Positions 13,367-48,867 of a DNA stretch of 64,000 nucleotides are shown here, in pieces. Below the pieces are notes generated by a model. It saw nothing but the letters and a program-made list of their open reading frames with translations. It made no database searches and was not told the DNA's origin. How positions within the stretch are numbered: the first letter of the stretch is position 1; each line of letters begins with the position of its first letter. The stretch covers positions 4,768,001-4,832,000 of the forward strand of contig CBDCJV010000002.1 in NCBI GenBank assembly GCA_965217895.1, given 5' to 3'. The stretch is from Waterburya sp. Its GTDB lineage: Bacteria; Cyanobacteriota; Cyanobacteriia; Cyanobacteriales; Xenococcaceae. The position numbers were made by a program, and so were the translations under genes.

Positions 13367-13569
13367 GCGATTCAGCGCGGTCTTGCGAGAAAGGACTTGT
13401 CCGCATCTGAGTCCGTTGCGGTGAAGCAGTTGCGTTGGGCGGGTTTCCCGACTTGAGTAAACTGCTTCACCCGAAGGGAGATTCCCTCCCTTGAAGGAAC
13501 TGTCGAGGGCGGGGTTTCCCCCATGAGCGACTGAATCAACAAAGGCTTAAGCCGCATGTAGCGATTGCT
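13367..13569. repeat. Nested cluster of small structured dispersed repeats
   Basis: Two 21-nt elements (13388-13408, 13539-13559), a 46-nt family copy on the minus strand and a split gggggaaacccc element. Confidence 0.85.
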
Positions 13570-13622
13570 TATAAAGCCAAACATAAAATTTTTTAAAAAA
13601 ATAAAGACGTAACGTAAATTCT

Positions 13623-13665
13623 GTAGCCAATTTGACAATTTGTTAGATCTTTATCAGGATACGAT
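13623..13665 (+). promoter_or_regulatory. Imperfect NtcA box plus -10 element of glnN
   Basis: GTA-N8-GAC, then TACGAT 23 nt downstream. Confidence 0.5.
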
Positions 13666-13712
13666 CAAATAAATTAAAACACATACACATATCTTTAGAA
13701 AATAAAACTGTC

Positions 13713-15887
13713 ATGGGATACGAATCTCGCACTCAAGCAATCTACCAAATTACCGAACGCGAACCAATTCTTGCTGAACCCCCTAGCCGTTTAGAAGATA
13801 TTTGGGCAGCAGACGTTTTTAGCTTAAGTAAAATGAAACAGTGCTTACCTAAAAATGTCTTAAAATCTCTAAAAAAAACGATTCAAGCAGGGGAACAATT
13901 AGACGTTTCCATTTCTGACATGGTGGCATCGGCAATGAAAGACTGGGCTATTTCCAAAGGTGCTTCTTACTATGCCCACGTTTTTTATCCGATGACTAAT
14001 GCCACCGCCGAAAAGCATGATGGATTTATATCTGTTCAAAGTGATGGCAGCGCGATTTCCGAATTTGCAGGCAAGCTATTAGTACAAGGTGAACCCGATG
14101 GTTCGTCCTTTCCTAATGGTGGTATTCGCTCTACTTTTGAAGCCAGAGGCTATACAGCTTGGGACGTAACTAGTCCTGCTTATCTAATGGAAACAGATAA
14201 CGGTGTGACTCTTTGCATTCCCACTGTATTTATCTCTTGGACAGGAGAAGCCCTAGATAAGAAAACTCCTTTATTGCGTTCTATTGGCGCAATGAATAAA
14301 GCAGCAAACAAGGTACTTAAATTACTAGGTCACACAGATATTGCTCCTGTTAATTCTAGCTGTGGCGCAGAGCAAGAATATTTCTTAGTAGATGCTCATT
14401 TTGCCAATAGCCGTCCAGACTTACTATTAGCTGGAAGAACCTTATTTGGCAAGCCCCCTGCTAAGGGTCAGCAGTTTGACGATCATTATTTTGGCGCAAT
14501 TCCTGAGCGAGTTCAGGTATTTATGCAGGATGTAGAAAAGAAAATGTATCGCTTAGGTATTCCTGCTAAAACCAGACATAATGAAGTAGCTCCTGGACAG
14601 TTTGAAATCGCACCCTTTTTTGAAGCAGCTAACGTCGCTTCTGACCATCAACAGTTAACTATGACACTGTTGCGTCAGACTGCCAAAAAGCATGGTTTTG
14701 TCTGTTTGCTACATGAAAAACCCTTTGCAGGCATTAATGGTTCTGGTAAGCACGTCAACTGGTCTGTAGGCAACGAAACTCAGGGCAATCTACTAGATCC
14801 TGGTGACTCTCCCCATGAAAATGCTCAGTTTCTTGTTTTCTGCGCTGCGGTAATTCGCGGGGTACATAAATTTGGTCCTTTGATGCGGGCCGTAATTGCC
14901 AATGCCAGTAACGATCATCGTTTAGGCGCAAATGAAGCACCTCCCGCAATCATGTCGGTTTATCTGGGTTCTCAATTAGAGACTTTGTTTAACCAAATTG
15001 CCACAGGAGAAATAAGTGACAACTATAGCCACAAAGGAGAAATGCGAATTGGAGTAGATACTTTACCACCTCTGTCTAAAGATGCTGGCGATCGCAATAG
15101 AACTTCTCCCTTTGCCTTTACTGGCAACCGTTTTGAGTTTCGTGCAGTTGGCTCGGGTCAGTCTGTTTCAGGGCCATTAATTGCTCTTAATACTATGCTG
15201 GCAGATTCGCTTAACTTTATAGGGAATCTTCTAGAAAGTGAATTAGAAAAAGGAACAGATCAAAACGCTGCTATTTTGACTGTCCTCAAAGACATAATGC
15301 AAAAACACGGTGCAGTTATTTTTGGTGGCGACGGCTACTCTGCCGAGTGGCACAAAATGGCAGTAGAAGAGAGAGGTTTGCTTAATTTACCTACTACTGC
15401 TGATGCCCTCCCTTACTTGAAAGAAAAATATATTGAAGAGCTATTTGAAAGCACAGGAGTTTTATCCCCTGTAGAATTAGAAAGTCGCTACGAAGTATAT
15501 TCTGAGCAGTATGTTCTCTCTATCGAAGTTGAAGCCAAGCTAGTGATAGACATGGCAAAAACCAGTATTTATCCTGCTGCCATGAGACATTTAGCTGACA
15601 TTGCTGGTACTGTGGCGGGTTTAGAAGAGATGGGCATCAGTCTCGCTCCAGACAACATTAAAAAAGTCGCGGAGTTGACTAACTCTATGATGTCTAAAGT
15701 GGCTAAGTTAAGTTCGGCTTTAGAAAAAGAAGACTTTGGCAACACTGAAGAACACATGAAATATTGTGCTGAGACTATTCGTCCGATGATGGATAGCGTC
15801 AGAGAGGACGTTGATGCCTTGGAAAGCGAGGTTGCTGATGACTTATGGCCTCTACCTACTTACCAAGAAATGCTATTTATTAAGTAG
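13713..15887 (+). CDS. glnN: Glutamine synthetase type III
   Basis: 724 aa; [52 protein letters not shown]. Confidence 0.97.
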
Positions 15888-15916
15888 GCTTTTTGTACAA
15901 ACAATTGTTCATTACC

Positions 15917-16147
15917 TAGGGCGTGTCATCAATTGAGGGGAAGAATGCTTTTGCAGCGTATTTTAGCGAGATACAAGAAGAAAAATGTTCTGCATAGCAG
16001 GGCTACGGAGGTTATTTTTCGACGCAGTAGGTCGTTAAAAGGCGAGCGACCCCGCGTCGCCGACAGGCGCAAGACAAAGGCTTTAGCCGCATGTACGCGC
16101 GAGCTAGACCAAAAAAAGCTCTTTTTTTTAATTGATGACACGTCCTA
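15917..16147. mobile_element. MITE with 18-bp terminal inverted repeats carrying nested small repeats
   Basis: tagggcgtgtcatcaatt ... aattgatgacacgtccta (1 mismatch); no transposase. Confidence 0.8.
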
Positions 16148-16198
16148 AACTAAGAGGTAAAATATCAACCTTTGTAAATCTGGTCTAAGTTACTTGAC

Positions 16199-16225
16199 AA
16201 ACCGTTCTCTAGGGAACGGTTTTTT
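16199..16225 (+). terminator. Intrinsic terminator downstream of glnN and the MITE
   Basis: aaccgttc/gaacggtt stem plus T-run. Confidence 0.75.
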
Positions 16226-16403
16226 GTTTAATATATTCTTAAAGTCTGACTTTGACCAATGATTGCAGCAGCAAAGAGACCCACTAAAGAGGGAAACAGC
16301 AACAATAGAAAGAATTTGCTTAAAGTAAGTATTTTAATTCAGTTATAAAATTTAAGATTAAGCAAAAGCTTAAGATTATATATTCAACAAGAATAATAAA
16401 ACT

Positions 16404-16417
16404 GTATTAACGAATAC
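16404..16417 (+). promoter_or_regulatory. NtcA box upstream of amt1
   Basis: GTA-ttaacgaa-TAC, perfect consensus ~90 nt before the ATG. Confidence 0.8.
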
Positions 16418-16509
16418 GGCAATAGAGAGAAAAAAATCACAAACTAGACAAATTATAGTTTGCAAATTTAGACAAACTAAATATATTTTCTAAATTAATT
16501 GAAGTGTAG

Positions 16510-18009
16510 ATGAATTCTAAATTCTTAGAAACAAGTAGATCTCTTGGACATGAAAATGGCCAGAGTGTAGGAACACAGGTTAAAAACCTAGTTCCAAGAC
16601 CTTTGAGAACAATATTTAAATCTTTTTCCCCTGCGTGGTTTATCTGTATTCCCCTAGCAGCGATTATTGTTATCGTTTGGAATACGGCAGCAACGGCTCA
16701 GGGATTAGAACCCCCTACAAATCTGGCGCAATTAACAATTGTCGTAGACACTATCTTTATTCTAGCAAGTGCTATTCTAGTAATCTTTATGAATGCTGGA
16801 TTTGCTCTGTTAGAAACAGGATTCTGTCGCCAAAAGAATGCGGTTAATATCTTGGCAAAAAACTTAATCGTTTTTGCGATCGCCAGTTTAGCGTATTGGG
16901 CAGTAGGTTATGCTCTTATGTACGGTAATGGTAATCCTTTTATCGGTTTAAGTGGCTTCTTTTTTAATGGCGATTCTGTTCCTTATGGTAACGAGCCTTA
17001 TCCCGCGGCGGTTCCCGAAACAGTTTCTTTCTTGTTCCAGGTAGCTTTCGCAGCCACCGCAGCAACCATTGTTTCTGGTGCGGTAGCAGAGAGAATAAAG
17101 TTTGTTGCTTTTCTCATCTTTAGTACTTTATTAGTAGCTATTTCCTATGCTATTACTGGACACTGGGTTTGGGATGGTGGCTGGTTAAATAGTGGCGCAG
17201 ATGGCGCACTTGCATTTCATGACTTTGCAGGTTCAACCATGGTTCACTCCGTGGGTGGCTGGGCAGCTTTAGTCGGTGCAGCTATTTTAGGCCCTAGATT
17301 GGGTAAATACCAAAATGGTAGAATAGGGGCAATACCTGGACACAACATGGGTTTTGCAACTCTGGGTTGTTTAATTCTTTGGATTGGCTGGTTTGGTTTT
17401 AACCCTGGTTCAGAATTGGCAGCAGATGGTAATGTTGCCTATATTGCTGTGACTACAAACTTAGCAGCAGCAGCAGGTGGTGTAACGGCTACCGTTACTT
17501 CCTGGCTCAAAGATGGAAAACCAGATTTATCGATGATCATCAACGGTATTTTGGCTGGTTTGGTCAGTATTACTGCTGGTTGTGATGATGTCAGCCTTTT
17601 ATCGGCTGTAATCATTGGTGCAATCGCTGGTATTATCGTCGTTTTCTCTGTTGCTTTCTTTGACAGTATCAAGATTGATGATCCTGTAGGTGCAACTTCT
17701 GTTCACCTAGTCTGTGGTATCTGGGGAACTCTAGCAGTCGGTATTTTTGGTACAGCGAATATTGTCACGCAAATTATCGGTATTGCATCTATTGGTGCCT
17801 TTACTATAGTCTTTAGTGCTATTGTTTGGACTTTACTCAAGGTAACTATTGGTATTCGCGTTCACGAAGACGAAGAAAGACGTGGTTTGGATATCAGTGA
17901 ACACGGAATGGAAGCATATAGTGGCTTTGTCAAAGAAGCAGACGTTTTATCTGGTGGTGGTTCAGGAATGCCTGTAGATATCAACCCAGCTAAAAGCTCG
18001 GAATTTTAA
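16510..18009 (+). CDS. amt1: Ammonium transporter Amt1
   Basis: [40 protein letters not shown]. Confidence 0.95.
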
Positions 18010-18050
18010 GCTTTGTTGTTAAAAGCTTAAGGTAATTAAAATATAATTTT

Positions 18051-18095
18051 GCCATTGCGATCGCACTTATTGTGTTTTGCAATGGTATTTTTTTT
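18051..18095 (+). terminator. Intrinsic terminator after amt1
   Basis: ccattgc/gcaatgg stem plus long T-run. Confidence 0.65.
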
Positions 18096-18114
18096 CTGTA
18101 CGTTTTAGTATCTT

Positions 18115-18779
18115 ATGTTGAAATTTTATTACACAAAGTTTTCTTTATATTCTCGTTCAGTATGGATTACGTTGCTGGAGAAACAACTTCTCTTTGAGCC
18201 AATTGAATTATCATTGGATGGAGATCAATGGCAACCTGAGTTTTTGGCAATTAATCCTTTTGGTCGCGTTCCTACACTAGTAGATAATAACTTCTCAATC
18301 TTTGAATCTCTGGCTATTTTAGATTATCTTGAACTTCAGTATACAAGTCCTGCTTTTTTACCAACAGATATTCAGATACTAACTATTGTCCGAATGACAG
18401 AAATGCTCACCATACAAGAGCTAATACCTGCCATGCTGACTATCATTCGTGAACTGATAACGAAAGTGCAGTTAAGCAAGCTAATCAACAAATAATCGCC
18501 ATGCTTAGTTTTTTAGAAAAGCATTTGACTAATAATTTTTATATAGCTGGCGATCGCCTTACTTTTGCTGAAATTGTTGCAGGTTCGTTTATCTTATGGC
18601 TACCTTATTTAAATATTACTTTATCTAATTATCCCCAGGTAAAACTATAGTCAAACAAACTGATGCAACGCCCAGCTTGGCAAGCAACTCAACCAAATCC
18701 TGAAGTTATTCCAAATTGGTTAAAACGTATTCAAAAACTACCCAGAGTTAGAGAAAGACAGCGGAAGCAAAAAACATAA
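18115..18779 (+). pseudogene. Glutathione S-transferase pseudogene
   Basis: GST N-domain (NPFGRVPTL, FESLAI); frameshift near 18450; C-domain (AGDRLTFAEI...RPAW) in another frame with an internal TAG at 18648. Confidence 0.85.
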
Positions 18780-18956
18780 ATCAACTAGTAAATTCTCAGT
18801 CTTAACATTAATAACCTGGTTTAGAGTTACAGGAAATACAAATAAGAATGGTACAAATAAACATTCTCCAAGTCCCTAAGTCAATCATCCGTAGCAAACA
18901 TTTTTAAATTTCATATTACCTGTGTTCTTTGTCCAGTTGTAAACTAACAGCTTTTT

Positions 18957-20117: not shown

Positions 20118-20305
20118 TAGCAATCGATAATTATTAATCAGACTATTATCAAGGTGTCACATCTGTACTCGGATCTGCCTTTGATTGATGTAAGCTGTGG
20201 AGGAATTTATATCATTATCTGACAAAATTGCCCTTTGAGTAACATATACTCGCATTTTGAATAAATAGGATATGGTGTAAATTAATTTTAAACAATCAAA
20301 AGTGA

Positions 20306-22087: not shown

Positions 22088-22127
22088 ACTTTGCCATCTA
22101 TTTGGAAGTTGGGTAATAGACAGTTAG

Positions 22128-22276
22128 GCGAGCGACCCCCTAAAGGGTTCAACAGTTTGCTCAACGGGGGGAACCCCCGCAACGCAACTGTCTCACCGCG
22201 TCGCCGTCAGGCGCAAGCGTCCGACACGAGGGCATCCCTAAACGGGAAGCCACGCGGACTTGGGAATGCGCGAGGA
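22128..22276 (+). repeat. 39-nt scaffold repeat expanded by two nested insertions
   Basis: gagcgacccc...cgcgtcgccgtcaggcgcaag...ggaatgcgc split by inserts, within CAGTTAGRG 9-mers. Confidence 0.85.
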
Positions 22277-22323
22277 AGGCAGTTAGGGCAGTTTTCTTTG
22301 ACTACAAACTACAAACTACAAAC

Positions 22324-24060
22324 TCAATAATGTGTTCCTGATTTACGGTGATGAATTGCTGTTACTCCTTCAGACTGGAATACTTTTCCTTGTTCGGCAA
22401 CAGCATAAATTAACCAATGATCTCCACATTCCATACGATTAGCAACCTGGCACTCTACATAAGCTAGAGCATCGCTTAAAATAGGACAGCCATTGGTGGC
22501 TTCTTCTGTGGCTACTCCTTCAAAGCGATCTTCCCCTGGAGCAAAAGGTTTAAGAAAGTGTTTCATTAAGCTAATGTGTTTTCCTTCAGGTAAAACATTT
22601 AAGACAAAGCTATTGCCCGTATAAAGTAGAGACTCGATCGCTCTTTCTTTGGCTACGGCAACGGTCAAACCAGGAGGATTAAAGGTGGCTTGAGATACCC
22701 AAGAAGCTAACATTGCTCCCGATACTTCGGCTTTTTTGGTAGTGACAATACACATTGAGCCTACCAAGCGACCTACTGCTTGTGCTGTACGATCAACATC
22801 GGCGGTAATTCCCTGAGCTTTTCTAACTTTTTGGCGATCTCGCTTGGCTTTTTTTAGAGCTTGAGCAAAATCTGTTCCTGCTTCTTCACAGGTTTTTAAA
22901 ACGGCATCAGTAGGGGTAAATTTAACTCGAATAGGTTCAAACCCAAACTTATAGCCAGCGTTGCGAAATTTTGTTTCTAATAAATCTACAGCTTCCCCAC
23001 TCCAGCCAAAAGAACCAAATGCTCCTGCTAGCTGAGTTTTGGCAGCATTTGCTAAGACAATACCCAATGCCGACTGTATCTGTGTAGGAGCGTGTCCTCC
23101 CAAAGTAGGTGAACCCATAACAAAGCCCGCCGATTTATCTACCGCCGATTTAATTTCCTCTGCTTTGGCAGATTCGGCATTGATCGATTCTACCGCCACT
23201 CCCGCTTTAGTAATGCCTCTGGCGATCGCACCAGCAATAGTAGCAGTGTTACCATAAGCAGAAGCATAAATTAAAGCCACCTTTAGTTCCAGTTTGTTTT
23301 GCTGTTGCGCCCAGGTACGATAATCTTCTGTCAATTCAATTAGACTATATCTAACTAATGAACCGTGGGCGGTAGCATAGATACGAGCAGGTTTATCAGC
23401 AATTTTATCTAAGCTAGCCATAACTTGACGAGCATGGGGAGCCATTAAACAATCAAAGTAATAACGGCGATCTTCTAAATCTACCGCCCAACCCTCATCA
23501 AAAACGCGATCGCCACACACATGACAACCAAACAGCTTATCAGTATAAAGAACCTCCGTTAAGCGATCGTAAGTACAAAGATGGTCGGGATAACGAGGGT
23601 TTGGGGTCGGGATAAATTCTAAAATATGTCCTTGACCAAGATCTAAAGTCTCCTCTCCTTTGATGACTTTTAACTTTAATTCTTGTTCTGCCCAAATTTT
23701 ACGCAGTGATATTGCCCCAGGATTAGAGCAGACAATCGTAATTTGGGGGGCAATTTCTAACAGAGCCTTGAGGGTGCTAGCGCGATTTGGATTGATATGC
23801 CCTAAGATGACATAATCAATTGTTTTCGGGTCAATTCTTGCCTGTAGAGCATCAATAAAAATAGTGGTGAAAGATTCCCCTGGCGGATCGAATAAAGCCG
23901 TTTTATCTCCTTCAACCAGATAAGAATTAGCAGTAGTTCCTTTTTGCAGAGCGTATTCAATTTCAAACTTTAGACGTTCCCAAGTACGTGATCGCAATAC
24001 ACGGGTATCCGCAGCAATGGGAAATACCTGAACATCCTTGGCTTTATTTACAGAGGACAT
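22324..24060 (-). CDS. flv1: Flavodiiron protein, Flv1-type
   Basis: MBL-like + flavodoxin + flavin reductase domains; RSRTWERLKFEIEY; non-canonical HINPNR iron-site motif. Confidence 0.8.
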   Translation of the reverse strand: MSSVNKAKDVQVFPIAADTRVLRSRTWERLKFEIEYALQKGTTANSYLVEGDKTALFDPPGESFTTIFIDALQARIDPKTIDYVILGHINPNRASTLKALLEIAPQITIVCSNPGAISLRKIWAEQELKLKVIKGEETLDLGQGHILEFIPTPNPRYPDHLCTYDRLTEVLYTDKLFGCHVCGDRVFDEGWAVDLEDRRYYFDCLMAPHARQVMASLDKIADKPARIYATAHGSLVRYSLIELTEDYRTWAQQQNKLELKVALIYASAYGNTATIAGAIARGITKAGVAVESINAESAKAEEIKSAVDKSAGFVMGSPTLGGHAPTQIQSALGIVLANAAKTQLAGAFGSFGWSGEAVDLLETKFRNAGYKFGFEPIRVKFTPTDAVLKTCEEAGTDFAQALKKAKRDRQKVRKAQGITADVDRTAQAVGRLVGSMCIVTTKKAEVSGAMLASWVSQATFNPPGLTVAVAKERAIESLLYTGNSFVLNVLPEGKHISLMKHFLKPFAPGEDRFEGVATEEATNGCPILSDALAYVECQVANRMECGDHWLIYAVAEQGKVFQSEGVTAIHHRKSGTHY

Positions 24061-26767: not shown

Positions 26768-26965
26768 GTAGCAATACGCTTAGTGTGAATTAGCTTCGTT
26801 TAAATTCGTTGGTTTTCAGCTTTTAGCTCTTAGCTCTTAGCTCTTAGCCACTATGAAAAAGGATAAAGTTTGACTTACTTAGCTACGTAAATACCAAATT
26901 TTAATAAACAGAACGTTCAGTAGAGCCATTTTAAGGTTTTTTAATTCACACTAGACGTAGCAATA
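26768..26965. mobile_element. MITE-like element with internal heptamer run
   Basis: Inverted tagtgtgaatta/taattcacacta ends; GTAGCAATA direct repeat on both flanks; (ttagctc)n inside. Confidence 0.55.
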
Positions 26966-31869: not shown

Positions 31870-33309
31870 ATGAAGACTCCTTTATTAAATGCTTTAAGAA
31901 AGTCTGCTCGCAAATCTCATGCAGCTTTTTATGCCCCTGGACATAAACAGGGTAAAGGAGTTAGTGATGATATTAAAGACTTAATAGGAAGTGCAGTATT
32001 TGCAGCAGATTTACCAGAGTTACCAGAATTAGATAACTTATTTGCTCCAGAAGGCGCAATTAAAGAGGCACAAAAATTAGCAGCAAAGACTTTTGGCGCA
32101 GAGAAAACTTGGTTTCTAGTTAATGGCTCTACCTGTGGCATTATGGCAAGTATTTTAGCTACCTGCGGTGCTGGAGATAAGATTATCTTACCGAGAAATA
32201 TCCATCAATCAGCGATCGCAGGTTTGGTTCTCTCAGGAGCAATACCGATATTTATTAATCCCGAATATGATGCCAGGGCTGGATTAGCCTTTAACGTGGC
32301 TTCAGAAGCGGTACAGCAGGCTTTAAAGACCCATCCTGATACCAAAGCCGTAATGATGCTCCATCCCACTTACCAAGGAGTTTGTACTGATTTAAAAGCG
32401 ATCGCCGAAATTACCCATCAATATAATATTCCTCTACTCGTAGATGAGGCTCATGGCGCACACTTTGCCTTTGATGATGATTTACCTCCTTCTGCCATGA
32501 GTATTGGTGCAGACTTAAGCGTGCAGTCTACTCATAAAGTCTTGAGTGCCATGACTCAGGCATCGATGCTGCATATCCAGGGTAAGAGAATTTGCGATCG
32601 CCAAATCAGTAAAGCCTTGCAGTTAGTTCAATCTACCAGTCCTAGCTATCTGCTGCTTGCCTCTTTAGACGCAGCCAGACAACAAATGGCAACCAAAGGC
32701 AAAGAGTTAATGAGTCGCACCATTGCTTTAGCGTGCGAAGCCAGAAATCAACTAGCCAAGATTCCGAACTTGTCGGTATTCAAACCAAACATAAGTCCTG
32801 GCTGTCAACACTTTGACTGTACCAGACTAACCCTTAACGTCTCTCAACTGGGCATCACTGGCTTTGAAGCTGACGAAATACTTCACCAACAATTAGGAGT
32901 AACCTGCGAACTTCCACTGCTGCATCACCTGACTTTTATTATCTCCCTGGGCAACACACCAGAAGATATCCAAAAACTGATCCAAGGCTGTACAACTCTG
33001 GCAAAAATAACTATTAGCTCTCAACCATTAGCTATTAGCCCTCAGCCATTAACTATTAACCCTCAACCATCAGCTATTAGCCCCCGCGATGCCTATTTCC
33101 TTCCTACCAATACTATTCCTTTTTGGCAGGCAAGCGATCGCCTTAGTGGTGAATTAATTTGTCCCTATCCTCCAGGAATTCCTGTGTTGATGCCTGGAGA
33201 AAAAATTACCCCTCAAACAATTGACTACTTACAACAGGTGCTAGCTGCGGGAGGAACTGTTACAGGGTGTAACGATCCTACGCTTAAAACAATACAAGTA
33301 CTTAAATAG
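31870..33309 (+). CDS. Orn/Lys/Arg decarboxylase (PLP-dependent)
   Basis: PGHKQG, LVNGST, DEAHG, QSTHK, PYPPGIP. Confidence 0.92.
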   Translation: MKTPLLNALRKSARKSHAAFYAPGHKQGKGVSDDIKDLIGSAVFAADLPELPELDNLFAPEGAIKEAQKLAAKTFGAEKTWFLVNGSTCGIMASILATCGAGDKIILPRNIHQSAIAGLVLSGAIPIFINPEYDARAGLAFNVASEAVQQALKTHPDTKAVMMLHPTYQGVCTDLKAIAEITHQYNIPLLVDEAHGAHFAFDDDLPPSAMSIGADLSVQSTHKVLSAMTQASMLHIQGKRICDRQISKALQLVQSTSPSYLLLASLDAARQQMATKGKELMSRTIALACEARNQLAKIPNLSVFKPNISPGCQHFDCTRLTLNVSQLGITGFEADEILHQQLGVTCELPLLHHLTFIISLGNTPEDIQKLIQGCTTLAKITISSQPLAISPQPLTINPQPSAISPRDAYFLPTNTIPFWQASDRLSGELICPYPPGIPVLMPGEKITPQTIDYLQQVLAAGGTVTGCNDPTLKTIQVLK

Positions 33310-33499
33310 AACTTAAGTTAAGTAGGTAAACTGATGACTAATACTAAGTCCGATTGGGAAAAGTATCTTAAATACTAAGTTCGTAGTTTGTAGTTAGTCG
33401 TTTGTAGTCAGGAAAAAACTACTTACTACCCACTACTTGCTATCCAACAGTTAAATAATCTCCGTGAACAGAATTTAGTATAAAAACTAAAAACTAATT

Positions 33500-39748: not shown

Positions 39749-39753
39749 TAAAA

Positions 39754-40122: not shown

Positions 40123-40274
40123 CTCCTAAGTAGGTAATGAGAAGGCTAATATTTTATTCATGCAAAAGGTCTATATAAATACAATAGTCATTTTCTAACC
40201 CACACATACTTTTGCCTTCTGCCTTCATACTTCGTTGACTAACTGATGTTACGCATTTATCGATCTGTGAAGAC

Positions 40275-40415: not shown

Positions 40416-40433
40416 GCTGCATAATATCAGTGA

Positions 40434-41021
40434 CTAATTTACTTTGATATATTCTATTGCTTTGAGCAAGGCATCAAGTATTACTTCAAAACTGTCATCA
40501 GTAGATCGAGGCAAAGTTAGTAATCCAGACTGTTCTAAAGTAATAAAGCCAAAAATTGTCGAATTTACCATTCGCATGATGTCAATCAATTTGGCTTTAC
40601 TTAAGCCTTGAGAATCTAAAAGAGTTTTGAATAAACCCTGAGATTGTTGAATTACCAAAGCTGATTCAGGCTCGTCTGGCTGCAACTGAAACTGCATCAT
40701 TACTTGAAATAGCCCTGGATGCGATCGCGCAAAATCTCGGCTAGCTAATCCCCCAGCCTTCAAACAAGCACGAGGTTCTTTTATATTTGCAGTTTTCTGA
40801 CTTAATTGGGCGAAATAAAGTTTATAAATCGCTAATGCTACTGCTTTTTTTAATTCTGCATTTCCTTGAAGATGTTTATAAATAGCAGGGGGTTTAATAC
40901 CCAATGCCCTAGCTACACGATTGACACCTAAAGCTGATGCTCCTTCTTGTTCGATACAGGCGATCGCTGCTTCAATTATATCTTGTCTAGTTAGAGAATT
41001 TTCTTTGGTTGGACGACCCAT
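40434..41021 (-). CDS. TetR/AcrR family regulator
   Basis: MGRP start; VARALGIKPPAIYKH HTH. Confidence 0.9.
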   Translation of the reverse strand: MGRPTKENSLTRQDIIEAAIACIEQEGASALGVNRVARALGIKPPAIYKHLQGNAELKKAVALAIYKLYFAQLSQKTANIKEPRACLKAGGLASRDFARSHPGLFQVMMQFQLQPDEPESALVIQQSQGLFKTLLDSQGLSKAKLIDIMRMVNSTIFGFITLEQSGLLTLPRSTDDSFEVILDALLKAIEYIKVN

Positions 41022-41096
41022 TTTTTTTATTTTCTTCTCGCTTTGTACTTCTAGATCTTGATAATTCAGGATTAATCGCTCGATCGCTTGGTTCAC

Positions 41097-41395
41097 AAGT
41101 AGCAGATAGCAAGTAGCGCAGCCTGGAGGCTGCCGACGTTGCTCCGCAACGGCGAGACGCGAAGCGCGTCTGCAAGTTCAACCTCTGCCTGAAGTCAGAC
41201 AAAGGGCTTGCCCGCATGTATTCAATTCTTGAATTATTCTTTTATCTTTTCCTCATGAATAAGGAGGCTTTAGACCAACTTCGGAGTTTTCTTAATTGCT
41301 ATCTGCGCGAACTGGAGTTCGCCGACTGCACTTTGTGCAGGCGAGCCGCTCCACGCGGCTTCTACTTGCTACTTTAACTCCGAAGGAGTTGGTAA
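41097..41395. repeat. Cluster: two 56-nt triple-hairpin elements and a 21-nt element in heptamer runs
   Basis: 41118-41173, 41199-41219, 41307-41362. Confidence 0.85.
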
Positions 41396-41561
41396 AAAAA
41401 TATGGCGTTGCTGACTACAGTTATCTGAGAAGTTTAATCAAAACAATCTTCTAATTCATTATGATTGTTATAGCTGTAATTAAATTGATAATTCTAGAAG
41501 AGCGATCGCTTTAATATTAAGCGAAATTTAAGAATTGTAAAGAAGTAACTAAAGTCCATCC

Positions 41562-43382
41562 ATGAGAATTTTACTCGTAGACGACGATGAACAGTTAATG
41601 GAGGTCTTGGCTAACAAATTAGTCGAACAGCGTTATGCTGTCGATATTGCCAGCAATGGTGAAATGGGCTGGGAGTTTCTGCTGCTGTTTGACTTCGATC
41701 TAGTGGTTCTCGACTGGATGTTGCCCGATATTGATGGAGTAGAGCTTTGCCAGCAGATTAGAGCCAAAGGCTATAAAATGCCGATTTTGCTCTTGACTGC
41801 TCGCGATCGCCATAACGATAAAGTAATGGGGTTGGATTCGGGTGCGGATGATTATGTAGTCAAACCCTTCAATTTTGACGAACTTACCGCGAGAATCCGT
41901 GCTTTGTTAAGGCGGGAAATTAGCGTATCTTCACCAGTATTAGAATGGGAAAATTTGACTTTAAATCCCAAAACTCATCAAGTACATTGTCGAGAACAAT
42001 TATTACCTCTGACACCCAAAGAATATGGCATGATCGAACTGTTTATGCGCCATCCTCAACAGGTATTTAGTCCAGGAGCAATTATCAATAACATCTGGGC
42101 GGGTGAAGATCCTCCAGGGGAGGAGGCGGTCAGAACCCATATAAAAGGCCTGCGTCACAAGCTCAAGTCTGCTGGTTTAGATAAAGATACGATCAAGACT
42201 GTGTATGGTGTTGGTTATCGTCTCAAGTCTGAAGAAGATCGACAAAGCAATCTGGTTCAAACTGCTAGCGATAAACAAAAGAGATTAGCAGCAATTACTC
42301 AAACTTGGTTAAAGTTCAAAGATGCAGCATTTGGGCGGTTAGCTGACTTAGAAAACTTTGCTAAAGCATTAGTAGAAGAGCAGGTAAACCCAGAAATACA
42401 CGCTCAAGCCAAAAGTTCTGCTCATAAGCTTGGGGGTTCGTTGGGCTGTTTTGGTTTTCCTGAAGGCTCAAAAATTGCCAAGCAGCTTGAGCAATTGTTA
42501 GATAATGCTTCTATTGAAGCTGCCGATACAAAACAATTTACAGAACTAGTTTCTGCGCTTTATACCGAATTACAACATCAGCCTTTTGAAAAGACAGTTA
42601 GAGATGCTTTGAGTAAAAATATTTCATTACTGATAATCGATCGCGACCTCGATGCTGAGTATAGCCAGAAACTATTTGCCGAAGCTCAACAAAAAGGAAT
42701 GAAAGTCTTTATAGCATCTAATCTGGAGCAAGCAGGAGCAATAACAGAACGAGAATCTATCGATGTGGTGCTGCATAAAATAACATTTCCCGATGGCGAA
42801 GATCTGACATTTCTCGAACAGCTACATCAGCATTTATCCGAGTTGCCTATTGTGGCGATCGCCGAATCGCCACAACTACTAGATCGCTTAGACATTGTTC
42901 GCAAAGGCGTTAACTTAACGTTGCAGTATCCAGTAAAGCCAAATACTGCTATTGATTGTGTTACAGAATTACTTCAAAGTTCGGGGTCTGCTGCCAAAAT
43001 CTTGATTCTCGATGACGATCCACAGGTATTACTCTCATTGAAAATATCCCTTCAGCCTTGGGGTTTTGAACTAACTACTCTTAACGATCCACAGCATTTT
43101 TGGGATGTCTTAGAAGATGTCGAACCAGATCTACTAGTACTAGATATAGAAATGCCAGAAATTAATGGTATTGAACTATGTCAAGTTATTAGAAGCGATC
43201 GCCGTTATCAGCAGTTACCAATTTTATTTTTAAGCGTACATCAAGACGAAAAAACTCAATATCAGGCTTTTGCTACTGGTGCAGATGACTATTTATGTAA
43301 ACCTGTAACTGGATCGATATTAGCTAACCGTATTCTCAATCGATTACGACGCAGTAAACCTCTGACCTCTGACCACATTTAA
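41562..43382 (+). CDS. RcaC-like multidomain response regulator (REC-wHTH-Hpt-pseudoREC-REC)
   Basis: LDWMLP receiver, OmpR wHTH, AHKLGGSLG Hpt, terminal LDIEMP receiver. Confidence 0.88.
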   Translation: MRILLVDDDEQLMEVLANKLVEQRYAVDIASNGEMGWEFLLLFDFDLVVLDWMLPDIDGVELCQQIRAKGYKMPILLLTARDRHNDKVMGLDSGADDYVVKPFNFDELTARIRALLRREISVSSPVLEWENLTLNPKTHQVHCREQLLPLTPKEYGMIELFMRHPQQVFSPGAIINNIWAGEDPPGEEAVRTHIKGLRHKLKSAGLDKDTIKTVYGVGYRLKSEEDRQSNLVQTASDKQKRLAAITQTWLKFKDAAFGRLADLENFAKALVEEQVNPEIHAQAKSSAHKLGGSLGCFGFPEGSKIAKQLEQLLDNASIEAADTKQFTELVSALYTELQHQPFEKTVRDALSKNISLLIIDRDLDAEYSQKLFAEAQQKGMKVFIASNLEQAGAITERESIDVVLHKITFPDGEDLTFLEQLHQHLSELPIVAIAESPQLLDRLDIVRKGVNLTLQYPVKPNTAIDCVTELLQSSGSAAKILILDDDPQVLLSLKISLQPWGFELTTLNDPQHFWDVLEDVEPDLLVLDIEMPEINGIELCQVIRSDRRYQQLPILFLSVHQDEKTQYQAFATGADDYLCKPVTGSILANRILNRLRRSKPLTSDHI

Positions 43383-43780
43383 ACCATGTCCTGTGGACAG
43401 TAGCCCAATCTATCTACAATCTGGTCGCGAAAAATTTCAATTTCTTCGGTTTTTGGCTTTCCATAATCAACAACTACTACCTGATAGAGATTCATAACCT
43501 CAGTAGGAGATTCTCCTTGTGCTAAACTTGCCAAAGCATTAATTACCTTGGATGAAGGTTGGATAATCATACCCATTTCATCAAGAAAAGACTGAAGATT
43601 TTTTGCCGATTGATAAGGTATTGAATTTTTTAGGTAGATTTGAATTAGCCAGCGATCGACTAAATTGATAACTGCCACTGAATCTAGATATGTTTGATAT
43701 TTATTGCGCAAACGCTGAATAACTCTAAGAGTAAAGCTAGCATTGCTAAAGGAGTAGATATATTCTTTATTTTTTTTCAT
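43379..43780 (-). CDS. Conserved cyanobacterial hypothetical protein
   Basis: NASFTLRV...LGYCP motifs recalled from a cyanobacterial family of unknown function. Confidence 0.7.
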   Translation of the reverse strand: MKKNKEYIYSFSNASFTLRVIQRLRNKYQTYLDSVAVINLVDRWLIQIYLKNSIPYQSAKNLQSFLDEMGMIIQPSSKVINALASLAQGESPTEVMNLYQVVVVDYGKPKTEEIEIFRDQIVDRLGYCPQDMV

Positions 43781-43789
43781 AGCTCTCAA

Positions 43790-43996
43790 TTAAGATACTT
43801 CTAACCAATCAAAAACTTGGTCTAGCTGTTTTGTATCGAGTAACCCATATTGCCAAAGAATAATGGGCAAAATATTGGGTTCTGCAACTTGATTTCTCTG
43901 TGCCAACGAAATTGCCTCAGCGGAAATCTTCAATTCCGATCGCAGAAAGTTTATTAGTAGCTCTAGCATTTTGGATACTCTCGATTTATATGGCAT
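43790..43996 (-). CDS. DUF2949 family protein
   Basis: LPIILWQYGLL...QLDQVFDWLE. Confidence 0.85.
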   Translation of the reverse strand: MPYKSRVSKMLELLINFLRSELKISAEAISLAQRNQVAEPNILPIILWQYGLLDTKQLDQVFDWLEVS

Positions 43997-44065
43997 TGGC
44001 AAGCTGTATTAGTTGAATAAATTTAGAAAAAGAATTTGAGGATCTTGTGAAGAACAATAAACGTA

Positions 44066-44106
44066 TTGCACGAATTAGAAATATCGGTTGAGAATGAGGT
44101 TAGAGG
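44066..44106 (+). repeat. Dispersed repeat, copy of 29630-29670
   Basis: 38/41 identity. Confidence 0.7.
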
Positions 44107-44208
44107 TCAAAAGTCAGGAATTACTTCCACTTAGTTAAATAAATATAAGTTACATGGTGAAAACCGATCGCCTGAATGGATTAGGATTAAAGATTAAACT
44201 AGAAGTTG

Positions 44209-47200
44209 ATGCAAACTGTGTTTTTTCGCTTCATTATCCTGGCAAAAATTTTAAGACTCAGCCAATTATTAATAGTGTGTATCGATAAGTACATTGAACC
44301 TAATCCCGTAACCGTCGCGCCAAACACTTTATTAAAAGCCGCGATCGCTTTGTTTGCTCAACCAGAAATTGACTATATTTTGGTTGAGCAAACAAAATTG
44401 GTTGGAATTTTAACCAAGGGTGATGTATTAAGAGCAATATCAACAGAAATTGAGATAAAGACTACTACTGTGGCTAAGGTAATGACTCAGCCTGTAATTG
44501 CGATCGCAACCTCGCAATGCCAGAATATTCAATCAGTTTGGTCATTACTGCAACAACATTCGATTAAACATCTACCAATTTTGAACAATGAAGGAGAATT
44601 GATTGGAGTTATCGATTATCAGAAGTTAATTCAGTCTTTTCGGCAAACAGAAAAATTGCCAGCCGATACCAGCAATATTAGTCCTCAACTATCTAACCGC
44701 GGAAGGCGGCCAACCGCAAGCCCCGCATCGGAGCGCGTTCCCTTGCGCCTGACGGCGACGCGGGGTCGCTCCTCCTTTGCAAGGCGGGGAACGCTTGACA
44801 AGCTTTCTTATGTAACTGTGGAGGTGGTTGATGAACGGCAAGCTGCACGGCGCGAGGACAAACAAGCAGAAATTCTCCAGCAAGAACGAGATTTTTCTAA
44901 AGCTGTTATTAATACTGTCGGTGCTTTAGTAGCCATATTAGATCGGCAAGGAGTAATAGTTGGTTTTAATCGTACCTGCGAGCAGGTTACTGGATACAGC
45001 TTTGCAGAAGTTAAAGGTAGACCAGTCTGGGATTTTTTGATTCCCCTTGAGGAAAAGACGACGATAAGAGCCGTATTTGAGCGATTGTTGACGGGGCAAG
45101 TTCCCAATCAATATGAAAACTGCTGGATTGCCAAAGATGGCAGTAAAAATCTTATTGCCTGGTCGAATACTGCTTTGTTTGATGCTCAGGGTAATATAGA
45201 ATTTATTGTTGCTACGGGCATTGATGTCACCGAACAGCGAAGAATTTGGAATAAGTTAGAGCTTCAATATCGACAAACCAAACTCCTCACAGAAATTACT
45301 CGCAAAATTCGGATGACCATTGAGCTAGATAAAGTCCTGCAAACTGCCGTGACTGAAGTGCAGAATCTTCTAGCTTGCGATCGCGTTTTGATTATGGAAC
45401 TAAAATCAAACAATACAGCTATACCAATTAGTGAGTCGATCCTGCCCAATCTATCTTCTATGTTGGGTTATGAGCTTGCCGATCCTTTACTGATGGGTGA
45501 ATACATAGTGAGATACCGTCAGGGAAAGGTATTGCAGATTGATAATTTGGATGATGCGCCTATTTCTTTAGATATTAAACAGCTATTAAAACAGTTTCAA
45601 ATACAGGCTAAACTAGTCGTTCCCATTCTTTCTCATGGCGAACTTAAAGGTCTTTTGATTGCCCATCAATGTCATCATCCTCGACAGTGGCAAGACAATG
45701 AAATTCTAATGCTCAATCAGCTAGCCGATCAAATTGGCGTGGCTTTAACTCAGGCTCAATTATTTAATTATTCTGAGGAGCTAGTATTAGAAAGGACTAG
45801 AGAGTTAATCTGTACCAACGAATTATTACAGGCTGAAATTAACGAACGCAAGCAAAGTGAACAAGATTTAAGAGAAAATCAGCAAAAGCTAGCTGGTATT
45901 TTGGATAATGCAGATGAGGCAATTATTTCAATTAATGAAAGACAGCAGATTCAACTATTTAATCAGGGTGCAGAGAAAATTTTTGGCTATCAGGCTGCTG
46001 AAATTATGGGGCGATCTTTAGACTTTCTTCTACCTGAAGTATTTCGCCACGTCCATAGCCAGCAGATCAAACAATTTGCTAAATCTAGCGAACAGTCCCG
46101 TAATATGACAGAGCGGAGCAGTAGTGTATATGGTCGTCGTAAAAATGGGTCAGAATTTCCCGCCGAGGCATCTGTAGCAAAACTTAAAACCAAATCAGGA
46201 ATGCTTTTTACGGTGATACTCAAAGATGTTACCGAAAGTCAACAAGCTAGAGCCAAGCTACAGTCATCGAAAGCTCTCCTTGCCAAAGCCGAACAAATTG
46301 CCAAGATTGGTAGTTGGGAATATGACCATAAAACGAACAAACGAAGCTGGTCAGAAGAATTATTTAATATTTTAGGCTTTGATAAAGACTGTCCTATACC
46401 GTCTTGTCAAGAAATTTTAGCTCGCGTTCATCCAAAGGATCTTTTACTAGTTAAAAATACCCTTCGTGCCGGACATGGACAGGGAAAATCTTGGGAAATT
46501 ACTTATCGACTACTAACCCCCGACGGTAAGGTCAAGTATTTAGAAAGTAGAGGCGAACCAACAGTAGATTCTGAGGGTAAGGTTATTAAAGTATCGGAGA
46601 CAATTATGGATGTTAGCGATCGCATCCAGGCACAAAAATCGCTGCAACGCAGTGAACAACAGTTGAGATTAATTACCGATGCTTTACCTATATTAATCGC
46701 CTACATTGATAATCAACAACGTTACCGCTACAACAATCGTACCTACGAAACCTGGTATGGAAAATCCCGTTCTACTTTACAGGGACGAGCGATCAAAGAA
46801 ATAGTCGGAGAAGACAACTATCAAAAAATGCTGCCCTACGTTGAGATGGCACTGGCAGGAAAAACAGCTACTTTCGAGAACCAACGTATTTCCGAAAAAG
46901 GCAACTCTTACTGGATGAGTGCTACCTATATTCCCGATTTTGACTCAAATGGTGAGGTAAAAGGATTTTTCTCAATGGTGGAAGATATTACCGACCGTAA
47001 GGCAGTAGAACAGATGAAAAGCGAATTTATCTCCATTGCCAGTCACGAAATGCGAACTCCCTTAACTTCGATTCATGGTGTAGTAAAATTACTCTGCGCT
47101 GGTCGCTTGGGAGAACTGTCTGAATCAGGAGCCAAAATGGCAGATATGGCTCTGAGAAATAGCGATCGCTTAAAACGCTTAGTTAACGATATTCTTGACT

Positions 47201-47688
47201 TGGAACGAATGGAGTCGGGCAGAGATAGTATTGAAAAACAAAGGTGTAATAGTGCTGAATTGATCCAGCAGGCAATAGATACCACTCGCTCGATGGCAGT
47301 CGAACAGGGAGTTAGTCTCGAAAGCGATTCTCAATCTGAGGAATTTTTAGGCGATCGCGATCGCTTAGTACAGACCTTAACTAATCTTATTGGCAATGCC
47401 ATTAAGTTCTCAACTGCCGATAGTAAAGTTTCGATCTCTTCTCGATTGGAAAATAACAACGTTCTCTTTGCTGTTAAAGATCGAGGCAGAGGCATTCCCA
47501 CAGACAAGCTAGAAACTATCTTTGAACGCTTTCAACAGGTAGACGCTTCCGATGCTCGAAAAAAAGGAGGCACGGGTTTGGGTTTGGCTATTTGTCGTCA
47601 TATTGTCGAGCAGCATCGGGGAAAAATTTGGGTAGAAAGCGTTTATGGTCAGGGCAGCACCTTTTTCTTTTCTTTACCAAAACAATAA
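44209..47688 (+). CDS. Sensor histidine kinase: CBS-PAS-GAF-PAS(x3)-HisKA-HATPase
   Basis: CBS pair, CBCR-like GAF (DRVLI...LLIAHQC), SHEMRTPL H-box, N/G1/F/G2 boxes; start uncertain. Confidence 0.9.
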   Translation: MQTVFFRFIILAKILRLSQLLIVCIDKYIEPNPVTVAPNTLLKAAIALFAQPEIDYILVEQTKLVGILTKGDVLRAISTEIEIKTTTVAKVMTQPVIAIATSQCQNIQSVWSLLQQHSIKHLPILNNEGELIGVIDYQKLIQSFRQTEKLPADTSNISPQLSNRGRRPTASPASERVPLRLTATRGRSSFARRGTLDKLSYVTVEVVDERQAARREDKQAEILQQERDFSKAVINTVGALVAILDRQGVIVGFNRTCEQVTGYSFAEVKGRPVWDFLIPLEEKTTIRAVFERLLTGQVPNQYENCWIAKDGSKNLIAWSNTALFDAQGNIEFIVATGIDVTEQRRIWNKLELQYRQTKLLTEITRKIRMTIELDKVLQTAVTEVQNLLACDRVLIMELKSNNTAIPISESILPNLSSMLGYELADPLLMGEYIVRYRQGKVLQIDNLDDAPISLDIKQLLKQFQIQAKLVVPILSHGELKGLLIAHQCHHPRQWQDNEILMLNQLADQIGVALTQAQLFNYSEELVLERTRELICTNELLQAEINERKQSEQDLRENQQKLAGILDNADEAIISINERQQIQLFNQGAEKIFGYQAAEIMGRSLDFLLPEVFRHVHSQQIKQFAKSSEQSRNMTERSSSVYGRRKNGSEFPAEASVAKLKTKSGMLFTVILKDVTESQQARAKLQSSKALLAKAEQIAKIGSWEYDHKTNKRSWSEELFNILGFDKDCPIPSCQEILARVHPKDLLLVKNTLRAGHGQGKSWEITYRLLTPDGKVKYLESRGEPTVDSEGKVIKVSETIMDVSDRIQAQKSLQRSEQQLRLITDALPILIAYIDNQQRYRYNNRTYETWYGKSRSTLQGRAIKEIVGEDNYQKMLPYVEMALAGKTATFENQRISEKGNSYWMSATYIPDFDSNGEVKGFFSMVEDITDRKAVEQMKSEFISIASHEMRTPLTSIHGVVKLLCAGRLGELSESGAKMADMALRNSDRLKRLVNDILDLERMESGRDSIEKQRCNSAELIQQAIDTTRSMAVEQGVSLESDSQSEEFLGDRDRLVQTLTNLIGNAIKFSTADSKVSISSRLENNNVLFAVKDRGRGIPTDKLETIFERFQQVDASDARKKGGTGLGLAICRHIVEQHRGKIWVESVYGQGSTFFFSLPKQ
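44698..44794 (-). repeat. Nested structured repeat inserted in-frame in the kinase gene
   Basis: 44733-44771 is the reverse complement of the 39-nt scaffold at 47796-47834 (1 mismatch). Confidence 0.88.
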
Positions 47689-47795
47689 AGTCGCTCAAAT
47701 CAAACTTTTGACTTGTAACCTCTAACTTGTGACCTGCGAAATAAATAACTTAATAACTTATCTATCAACAGTTAGAGCAGTTAGAGCAGTTAGAC

Positions 47796-47834
47796 GAGCG
47801 ACCCCGCGTCGCCGACAGGCGCAAGGGAACGCGC
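47796..47834 (+). repeat. Uninterrupted 39-nt scaffold repeat in a CAGTTAGAG tandem run
   Basis: gagcgaccccgcgtcgccgacaggcgcaagggaacgcgc. Confidence 0.88.
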
Positions 47835-48042
47835 GAGGAAGCAGTTGAAAACCCCAATTTACCGTTAGCTATCTTAATCTCAAACAAGGGTCAAACACCT
47901 ATTATTTCGTTAACAATAAAATTTTGTCCGAACCATTGATCTATACGAACAGGATTTAGTCTAATATAGGGTTTGGAAAAAATCTCACAAAATACACATA
48001 TTTAACAGATAGGATTTCTACGACTTCTTGAGTTTTAATGAC

Positions 48043-48417
48043 ATGAGCGCAAAACGTATTTTGTTTATTGATGATGAGGATGATATTAAAACCCTAGCTA
48101 GTTTTTGTCTAGAGTCTGAAGCGGGTTGGGAAATGATGAGTGCTTCGAGTGGAACAGAAGGTCTGAAAATTGCTGAAACAGAACAGCCAGATGCCATTCT
48201 GCTAGATGCCATGATGCCAGAAATAGATGGAATACAAACGCTAGAGAAGTTACTCCATAATCCTAAAACCAAGCACATCCCAACAATATTTATTACCGCT
48301 AAAGCTCAAGCAAGCGATCGCCGTCGTTTCTATAGTGCAGGAGCGAAAGGAGTAATCAATAAACCCTTTGATTCTCTAACTCTAGCTAGCCAGATCTCTG
48401 GATTTCTTGGCTGGTAG
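48043..48417 (+). CDS. Single-domain (RcaF/CheY-like) response regulator
   Basis: ILFIDDE, LLDAMMP, TAKA, KPF. Confidence 0.92.
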   Translation: MSAKRILFIDDEDDIKTLASFCLESEAGWEMMSASSGTEGLKIAETEQPDAILLDAMMPEIDGIQTLEKLLHNPKTKHIPTIFITAKAQASDRRRFYSAGAKGVINKPFDSLTLASQISGFLGW

Positions 48418-48450
48418 CTAACCGATATCGCAGTACGTTGATTGGTTAGC

Positions 48451-48867
48451 GGTGCGACCCCCTAAAGGGTTCAGCAGTTTGACGGGCGACATAAACGCCT
48501 TTTCGGGCGGTCAACATTCTGGGGAAACCCCACGAGGGCGATTATTCAAGGCGAACTAAATTCGCCGAATCTCGCCCTCAGAATTACGCCCTCAGAAACC
48601 ACAGGCGACGCGCCCTCCTTATGCCAGGAAACCCTTTCGACACTTTGCTCAACGGGTCATAGACCCGCAACGCAAGTGTCTCACCACCGCAACTGCTTCA
48701 CCGCGTCGGCGGTAAGAGGGCAGACCCTGCGCCGCCGTCAGGCGCGTCTTGAAAAAGTTGTTCATGGGGGAAACCCCCAAGACCACACTTTTTCGCAAAG
48801 GAACGCTGCCCTAGCAAGGGAATGCTGACTTAGCAAGAGTAAGGACTTGTCCGCAACTACGCGCACC
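48451..48867 (+). repeat. Large multiply nested structured-repeat array
   Basis: Scaffold pieces gcgacccc / cgcgtcg / gccgtcaggcgc / caaaggaacgc separated by hairpin inserts; closed by ggtgcg/cgcacc. Confidence 0.85.

Follow-up and report, generated by a model that had tools for sequence, protein, structure and literature searches.

Small folded, gene-less elements nested in GC-rich islands of a Waterburya genome form a modular set of mobile repeats

Very small mobile repeats of 21–27 nt, which change their stems in a compensatory way and nest in one another, were reportedly found in Nostocaceae by Elhai et al. in 2008 and are called small dispersed repeats (SDRs). Here we describe elements of this kind from a 64,000-nt stretch of a Waterburya genome (contig CBDCJV010000002.1, positions 4,768,001 to 4,832,000; hereafter the window), in which seven GC-rich islands are nests of gene-less, folded elements, or modules, of 21, 45, 45–51, 54 and 57–58 nt. 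The elements are real, mobile and structurally constrained. They have the fixed small length and compensatory fold that characterise SDRs and work as SDRs do, but they make up a larger, modular set of this known, mechanistically unexplained kind; a preliminary description of the window had already called the set richer than SDRs, and most of its units, at 45–58 nt, exceed the 21–27-nt range that it cited.

By length, the 21-mer and a group of 21–24-nt inserts in highly iterated palindrome (HIP1) sites fit the SDR range, whereas the 45–58-nt units do not. Within HIP1, SDR5 enters between bases three and four, according to the accessible text of one study (PMC4390886); this type of site is used here by separate 21–24-nt families elsewhere in the genome, which enter at GCG^ATCGC, and not by the modules of the window. 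Whereas SDR-like repeats were not found outside Nostocaceae, as far as the available part of a second source goes (PMC5861425), the present genome, judged by its nearest plasmid matches, probably lies outside that family, its elements combine payloads with different end types, and the 21-mer was found in this genus only. The HIP1 inserts and their larger relatives in this genome extend the SDR range beyond Nostocaceae. Because the 21-mer is not above background outside the genus, it is unlikely by sequence to be a Nostoc SDR; the inner hairpin that we call D1, common in Nostoc-type genomes, may overlap something described there. No published SDR sequences were found in the accessible text of PMC6513891, PMC2884548, PMC4476775, PMC5987646 and PMC3184786, and in the literature searched, which left out most subscription papers, neither a mover of SDR-type repeats nor a description of the 45–58-nt families turned up.

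Three other classes of small element invite comparison. Repetitive extragenic palindromes (REPs) and their doublets (REPINs), associated with the transposase RAYT, are small non-autonomous bulged hairpins whose single-stranded fold has been proposed as the recognised unit, in the parts available of the sources (PMC3116915, PMC3479197, PMC3733652). The modules are likewise small, non-autonomous and bulged, but have no GTAG/CGTC tag at the 5′ foot, form no doublets, flank no cognate RAYT at the RAYT loci examined and show no copy-number link to RAYT; the true GTAG REPs of this genome flank RAYT and serve as module targets. With insertion sequences of the IS200/IS605 family and their gene-less derivatives (palindrome-associated transposable elements, PATEs) the modules share the lack of a duplication, insertion 3′ of a tetranucleotide and an element-encoded right end (such as TCAC). 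This insertion pattern holds for the 48- and 54-nt families and not for the 21-mer, which removes 3 nt, and the modules differ further in that a single composite hairpin, some 50 nt long, takes the place of a pair of end hairpins and that some families delete target bases. No parent insertion sequence with ends matching the modules was seen among four tnpB elements examined, a sample that did not include the tnpA elements of the genus itself. Finally, cyanobacterial MITEs (miniature transposable elements with inverted repeats) include Nezha, MaeMITE and those of Anabaena sp. 90, the last measuring 77–541 bp, in the accessible portions of the reports (PMC3184786, PMC3542288). They too are non-autonomous, structured, strain-polymorphic and sometimes found in open reading frames (ORFs), but inverted repeats at their termini and direct repeats in their flanks set them apart. 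The modules are shorter, their two ends differ, their insertion duplicates nothing and in most cases the reading frame is preserved. On the features tested, the modules are thus neither REPs or REPINs nor MITEs, and derivation from IS200/IS605 fits by half.

We refer to the genome of the window as G000, to its 5.2-Mb contig as C2, to relatives by other G-numbers and to loci by L-numbers; the element labels (21-mer, D1, D2 and the frames) were coined in the present analysis. C2 has 39% GC and 5,798 HIP1 sites, and the window has 40% GC as against 51–77% in the seven islands, all of which lie where they had first been reported. BLAST finds pieces of all seven islands repeated through the genome (296 merged loci, short partial matches counted). 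A Pfam scan of 13 ORFs around the islands returned housekeeping functions, signalling functions or no match, and no transposase, recombinase or reverse transcriptase (RT); for the islands and these ORFs this agrees with the earlier view that the enzyme is not encoded in the window. Rfam gave no match across the window; no module matched a group II intron derivative or other Rfam RNA, and in module-rich loci Rfam matched solely a real intron.

Folds were assessed by descriptors and pair counts, with 500 shuffles and slid registers as controls; the structures were drawn up on the very sequences counted, and the shuffles take no account of kinship, so that the figures describe a pattern and are not probabilities. 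The 21-mer (NNN-AA-GG-n6-CC-GCA-NNN) has 67 copies on C2 with all pairs Watson–Crick, compared with no fully paired copy in each of three shuffles and none among the 134 matches of six permuted-loop controls. Its outer arms read ACA/TGT, AGA/TCT, ACG/CGT or AGT/ACT, and the inner hairpins co-vary. Across 16 sequences of the 21-mer 96.9% of positions are paired as expected, with 18 double-sided changes versus 5.3 in shuffles; the corresponding values are 93.2% and 37 versus 13.6 for the 43-nt core of the D2 host (24 distinct sequences), and 91.6% and 30 versus 9.5 for the 57–58-mer (15 distinct sequences). In none of these families did any of the 500 shuffles reach the observed count, and in all three pairing was far above that of slid registers. 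The 45-nt family, with two distinct sequences recovered, stands outside the three counted. These data bear out the compensatory stem change first noted in the 21-mer and in a module then taken to be 56 nt long. Of the fixed lengths proposed at that time, 21 nt stands, with 18 nt gained net; 39 nt corresponds to the 43-nt core of 45–51-nt units, 46 nt to 45 nt, and 56 nt to 57–58 nt.

Simple copies of the D2 host number 88 (65 in G000 and 23 in the compared part of its relative G017) and show 29 arm combinations, 11 of them different fully Watson–Crick pairs. The second commonest combination carries a tandem G.A mismatch, and T.G occurs at one pair in 13 of the 24 sequences. The 58-mer of island 3 folds better on its minus strand (z −3.9 as DNA, −4.2 as RNA). 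From the D2 wobble pairs and the better fold of this reversed 58-mer, one strand is preferred.

Mobility is evident from comparison with G017, for which 2.79 Mb of the approximately 5.0-Mb genome were taken and 2.09 Mb aligned at 91.6% identity. The two genomes differ by 273 clean indels of at least 14 nt; 265 are shorter than 400 nt, and 47 of these carry a module, with module-bearing indels going both ways. Empty and filled versions of the same site, the polymorphism to which the preliminary description had looked as a check, therefore exist, and a 102-nt insert in a histidine kinase gene (island 5) is missing in two other strains, G017 and, as an exact skip, a contig of run X8. The indels also revealed further families: a 48-mer, two 54-mers, a 51-mer and the 21–24-nt inserts in HIP1. 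By a loose definition of the 21-mer, 2 of 24 alignable sites are common to G000 and G017, with 133 more unalignable. A long autonomous version of the 48-mer was sought and rejected, since none of 11 orphan 5′ ends could be paired with a 3′ end within 6 kb.

Landing rules were read from sites that have the flanks of an element but not the element itself. Of 83 contexts of the 21-mer, 27 were informative, and in 25 of these it takes the place of exactly 3 nt, a net gain of 18 nt; the trinucleotides lost are AGA, GGA, GCA, GTA, ATA, AGG, GGG and AAA. One C is common to target and element in 15 of 17 contexts of the 57–58-mer (33 in all), and the 48-mer neither adds nor removes target bases in all six contexts with an empty site (15 in all). 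Of the D2 end types, one inserts cleanly (six contexts) and another gives a net gain of 44 nt with loss of at least 2 nt (three contexts). For the AGCG...AAGAC and CGAGC...GCGAG units the search found matches on short flanks only, inconsistent with one another, in 5 of 19 and 3 of 16 contexts, and their lengths of 51 and about 46–48 nt come from single cases. The 48- and 54-mers land after TGAC, TTAC, TAAC or TGAT. In three clean strain pairs the target is TGAT or TTAC while the right end of the element is TGAC; because it stays TGAC where the target differs, the right-hand TGAC belongs to the element. The 57–58-mer and one 54-mer end in TCAC. No target-site duplication was found for the modules, and their targets are REP palindrome centres, other modules and 7–9-nt tandem arrays.

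Indel lengths are multiples of three in 30 of the 47 module indels and in 88 of the 218 others (Fisher P = 0.004). Long ORFs account for most of this excess: 15 of 16 inserts there keep the frame, compared with 15 of 31 lengths divisible by three outside ORFs; the ORFs counted are stop-to-stop proxies, some of them possibly spurious. Most copies are intergenic, many between convergent genes. Between co-oriented genes there is no transcribed-strand bias (19:20 for the 21-mer and 15:17 for the 57-mer), which fits a DNA target.

An element is built from an inner hairpin 'payload' (D1, D2 or another), which a terminal stem closes, and a handful of invariant bases at its ends; landing follows a separate rule for each end type. 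The same payload occurs with different ends: D1 with at least five end types and D2 with five, in G000 and G017 together. There are also 48/54-nt hybrids. The exact 24-nt D1 core is present at at least 118 loci; the 80 examined come from Nostoc, Calothrix, Tolypothrix, Rivularia, Scytonema, Pleurocapsa, Waterburya, Gloeocapsopsis and others, where, among the matches listed, it carries both the end types seen in G000 and G017 and additional ones, frequently within heptamer arrays, at net lengths of about 45–52 nt. Three of five plasmid examples of D1 lie within annotated genes, and the nearest plasmid matches for two module families and for the TnpB of G000 are in Chondrocystis and Stanieria. 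D2 is present in 39 of 39 genomes of the genus (1–97 copies); of 68 further genomes in the order, 9 have it. The 21-mer is present in 38 of the 39 (0–160 copies); the copy numbers of the two rise together across the genus (ρ = 0.65, in part owing to nesting). Two matches to the 21-mer in viral contigs are the same coding-like sequence with unpaired arms and were taken as chance. The sole tnpB element of G000 has a D1 element of 51 nt inserted in its left end (L169:2625–2676), and a Trichormus tnpB locus has a D1 element upstream.

We infer that the modules are recognised and transferred as single strands by an enzyme acting in trans. The account that we favour, tentatively, is that folded single-stranded DNA is moved by a strand-transfer enzyme of the HUH type (Y1- or RAYT-like, possibly unrecognised). 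Unwinding of the DNA would let one strand of the element fold; the enzyme would read the bulged stem, cut at the element ends and join the element to a target strand laid bare in a hairpin, a REP palindrome or a tandem array that has slipped, and replication would then fix the inserted copy. Multiple-of-three lengths would be favoured because such copies survive within genes. The landing of the 48- and 54-mers counts for this route, since IS200/IS605 elements likewise enter 3′ of a tetranucleotide and bring an end of their own, in the available text of the source (PMC3479197). According to the same partial source, E. coli TnpA-REP needs the A12–A13/G26–C27 bulge and the TT loop of its REP (PMC3479197). 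Similar to this bulge is the AA/GCA internal loop of the 21-mer, which sits on a 4-bp stem capped by a TT loop, but it is 2 × 3 instead of 2 × 2 and comes without GTAG. Also in favour are the lack of target duplication, the preference for one strand, the lack of a transcribed-strand bias, the kinds of target used (REP centres, other elements and 7–9-nt tandem arrays), and the TCAC that ends the 57–58-mer and one 54-mer, a sequence that also occurs among the ends of cyanobacterial tnpB elements.

G000 encodes one tnpB along with RAYT genes in three states: frameshifted, intact with GTAG REPs beside it, and, as a copy of the intact one, broken. Another intact RAYT is present in G017, and intact RAYTs in both genomes likewise count for the HUH route; no IS200/IS605 TnpA was found in either genome. 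Several observations weigh against an HUH enzyme acting on DNA. The intact RAYT of G000 is flanked by its own REPs and not by modules, and no GTAG guide lies 5′ of the 21-mer. No PF01797 match was found in G017, and G006, 99% complete, has 46 D2 copies with no PF01797 match and one weak RAYT fragment. Copy numbers do not follow Y1 genes (PF01797, ρ = −0.21 and −0.41 in 19 genomes; NF047646, ρ = −0.09 and −0.27 in 39), nor do they differ with the presence of the G000-type RAYT (P = 0.5–0.6). The ends of three cyanobacterial IS605-type/tnpB elements, which read TTCA, TCAA or TCAC, have no hairpin in common with the modules. Neither head-to-tail dimers nor permuted copies, as a circle intermediate would leave, were found, and replichore bias was not clear (two-breakpoint P = 0.05–1.0, lowest 0.052 uncorrected, with little GC skew). 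HUH enzymes are not known to remove exactly 3 (or 2) bases of the target. Lastly, the covarying outer stem of the 21-mer is the minimum-energy fold as RNA and not as DNA (predicted pairing 0.57 and 0.27). The HUH/RAYT- or RT-like mover proposed in the preliminary description remains a candidate, and copy numbers in the genus follow neither Y1, RAYT nor RT counts; present-day gene counts may, however, not mirror those at the time of spread, so that such negatives weaken candidates without excluding them.

Two related ideas were dropped: a circular intermediate, as circular folding also failed to single out the true ends, and an origin of the 48/54-nt hairpin from an IS605 end, for which one exact pattern had no match in viral contigs and the three tnpB ends proved unlike the modules. 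The frameshift-broken RAYT lies at L168:1462–1993, flanked by GTAG-tagged REPs, and the intact RAYT with its broken duplicate at C2 3519192–3521286.

The RNA-like fold of the 21-mer leads to a route that we consider unlikely, in which a transcribed module folds and is copied to DNA by a group II intron or related RT, template jumps dropping the 2–3 target bases. G.T wobble and tandem G.A pairs are tolerated, as this route allows, and G000 has eight RT matches, three of them identical group II intron copies. RT counts, however, do not track module copies across the genus (ρ = 0.22, P = 0.18; ρ = 0.09): G183 lacks any RT at E ≤ 1e-15 and carries 160 21-mers, whereas G178 has 20 RTs and one 21-mer. 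The modules also show no orientation relative to transcription and no Rfam match in the window. As a separate observation, the three near-identical intron copies (C2 35413–37664, 274002–276250 and 2699776–2702027; L171–L173) each sit in a small hairpin element with a 21-mer 14 nt behind the intron 3′ end. Likeness of the 21-mer to group II domain V and of the 57-mer ends to integron core sites was treated as chance.

Host repair or recombination without a dedicated transposase, to which we give the same low standing as the RNA route, would have a conserved host enzyme or a polymerase template switch copy in a hairpin that stands at another genomic place, at stalled forks or slipped repeats, the fold fixing the switch points. 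It would account for modules in 38–39 of 39 genus genomes whatever mobile enzymes these contain, for two families whose counts move together, for payloads and ends that recombine, as in the 48/54-nt hybrids, for targets that are slippage-prone arrays and hairpins, and for the loss of target bases, which is natural to template switching. The exact boundaries (3 nt replaced in nearly all informative contexts of the 21-mer; a single shared C in those of the 57–58-mer) speak against it, and end-specific target rules together with fixed unpaired bases across families point to a specific reader.

Movement in trans by a divergent, RNA-guided IS110-family recombinase (NF051857), like the REP-targeting IS110 members, appears less likely again. 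An intact gene of this type is present in 9 of 39 genomes, and these hold more modules (median 71 versus 10.5 copies of the 21-mer, P = 0.004; 45 versus 6 of D2, P = 0.007), a link that is post hoc, from the fifth enzyme family tried, in kin that are not independent. IS110-type insertion duplicates nothing, and the Anabaena element IS1594 enters REP-like sequences, as the accessible part of one report has it (PMC3184786). Yet G183, G192 and G006 lack the gene, the first with its 160 21-mers, while G008 and G185 have it and few copies, and counting any match the effect vanishes (P = 0.13 and 0.20). Divergent IS110 copies are present in G000. Upstream of the IS110-type genes, where a small ORF is conserved together with a CTGATGAG...C(G/A)AAAC motif, the non-coding DNA reads unlike module ends, and conservative recombination leaves the lost bases unexplained. 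The motif resembles a hammerhead core; at L308 and L309 it had no Rfam match at E ≤ 0.05. IS91 (PF04986) matched in none of five genomes, where its control likewise matched nowhere, and the ten tyrosine recombinases of G000 showed no module link except one 21-mer inside a XerC-like gene; this copy lies in frame in the 5′ part of the stop-split gene (L307, C2 593926–593946).

That the modules are selected regulatory hairpins, terminators or mRNA stabilisers spread by ordinary duplication and not themselves mobile, is very improbable: the intergenic position of most copies, many between convergent genes, would suit it, but clean empty and filled sites contradict it, with only 2 of 24 alignable 21-mer sites shared at 92% identity, 16 of the 47 clean module indels inside long ORFs, deep nesting and no strand preference.

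Transfer of folded DNA by an HUH-type enzyme thus remains our preferred account, with the reservation that no candidate explains the 21-for-3 exchange without an added step, for example flap removal after one-ended strand transfer. A broader reading is rather doubtful: in a general cyanobacterial system, one enzyme, other than known Y1, RAYT or RT proteins, might write a folded single strand of 20–60 nt into DNA, scar-free or by an exact exchange of a few bases, with swappable ends setting the target and the inner hairpin as the enzyme's handle; such a system would be reprogrammable and would supply in-frame peptide inserts. If a single trans-acting enzyme is at work, it would define mobile DNA at the 20–60-nt scale, explain one source of in-frame protein inserts in cyanobacteria and possibly provide a duplication-free insertion tool. 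For pursuing this, the present genome offers several families, exact empty/filled junctions and landing rules for each family, including the exact 21-for-3 exchange, and the genus a panel spanning 0–160 copies per genome, with a payload conserved from the genus to Nostoc-type genera.

The make-up of the islands is given in Table 1. Nesting had been claimed in other modules, in tandem repeats, in an ORF and in a MITE; all but the last hold.

Table 1. Composition of the seven islands and positions of related features (window coordinates unless a contig or locus is named)
Feature	Position	Strand	Make-up
Island 1	13366–13559	+	five elements, four nesting levels; outermost a D1 element with AGCG...CAAGA frame
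Inner D1 element, island 1	~13384–13509		GCGA...GAGGG frame; hosted by the outermost element, hosts a 21-mer and a 58-mer
21-mer, island 1	13388–13408		in the inner D1 element
58-mer, island 1	13421–13478		in the inner D1 element
Second 21-mer, island 1	13539–13559		at the 3′ end of the outer D1 element
Island 2	16040–16103	+	D2 host, arms CGAGC...GCGAG with tandem G.A mismatch
21-mer, island 2	16074–16094		carried by the D2 host, replacing GGA
Island 3	22126–22277	+	D2 host with two inserted elements
58-nt D1 element, island 3	22138–22196		insert; one C common to target
45-nt element, island 3	22217–22261		insert
Island 4	41097–41395	+	composite of ~300 nt: AAGTAGC heptamer runs and nested hairpins
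21-mer, island 4	41199–41219		
Histidine kinase gene	44206–47688		host of island 5
Island 5	44698–44799	+	102-nt in-frame insert (34 codons); 54-nt element after TAAC, ending TTGAC
48-nt D2 element, island 5	44727–44774	−	nested in the 54-nt element
Island 6	47769–47840	+	tandem array with simple D2 element inside
Tandem array, island 6	47769–47794		CAGTTAGAG repeats
D2 core, island 6	47795–47837		
Island 7	48448–48872	+	AGCG...CAAGAC-framed D2 element hosting a 58-mer frame
58-mer frame, island 7	48460–48701		holds further nested units
D1 core, island 7	48649–48671		nested in the 58-mer frame
Second D2, island 7	~48714–48745		
D1 element, island 7	48746–48796		reversed
21-mer, island 7	48838–48858		
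Module-free heptamer tandem arrays	1513–1563, 10108–10140, 22301–22324, 26818–26848, 33011–33083, 33378–33446		usual cyanobacterial kind, in intergenic gaps
IS110-type loci with upstream motif	L308, L309; C2 near 840900; L068 near 16700		

At island 1, G017 is 176 nt shorter and keeps a short remnant; at island 3 its contig breaks. Island 4, between divergent tetR-family and response-regulator genes, is the supposed MITE: neither a terminal inverted repeat nor a target duplication was seen at its ends, and we reject a classical MITE in favour of a heptamer-array composite. The same composite lies within several broken copies of a 1.5-kb transposase-like element, presumably ISAs1-like (C2 191864–193355 and similar copies), where most 5′ flanks end in TTCAC. 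The gene that holds island 5 encodes a CBS-PAS-GAF histidine kinase by Pfam, with the reading frame open through the insert, and the host element there belongs to a further 54-nt family, beyond the modules first reported. At islands 6 and 7 the intergenic DNA of G017 has been replaced, at island 7 by unrelated sequence. In G005 (L008), the gap between kinase and response-regulator genes that corresponds to island 6 holds a CRISPR-like array of repeats of about 37 nt and spacers.

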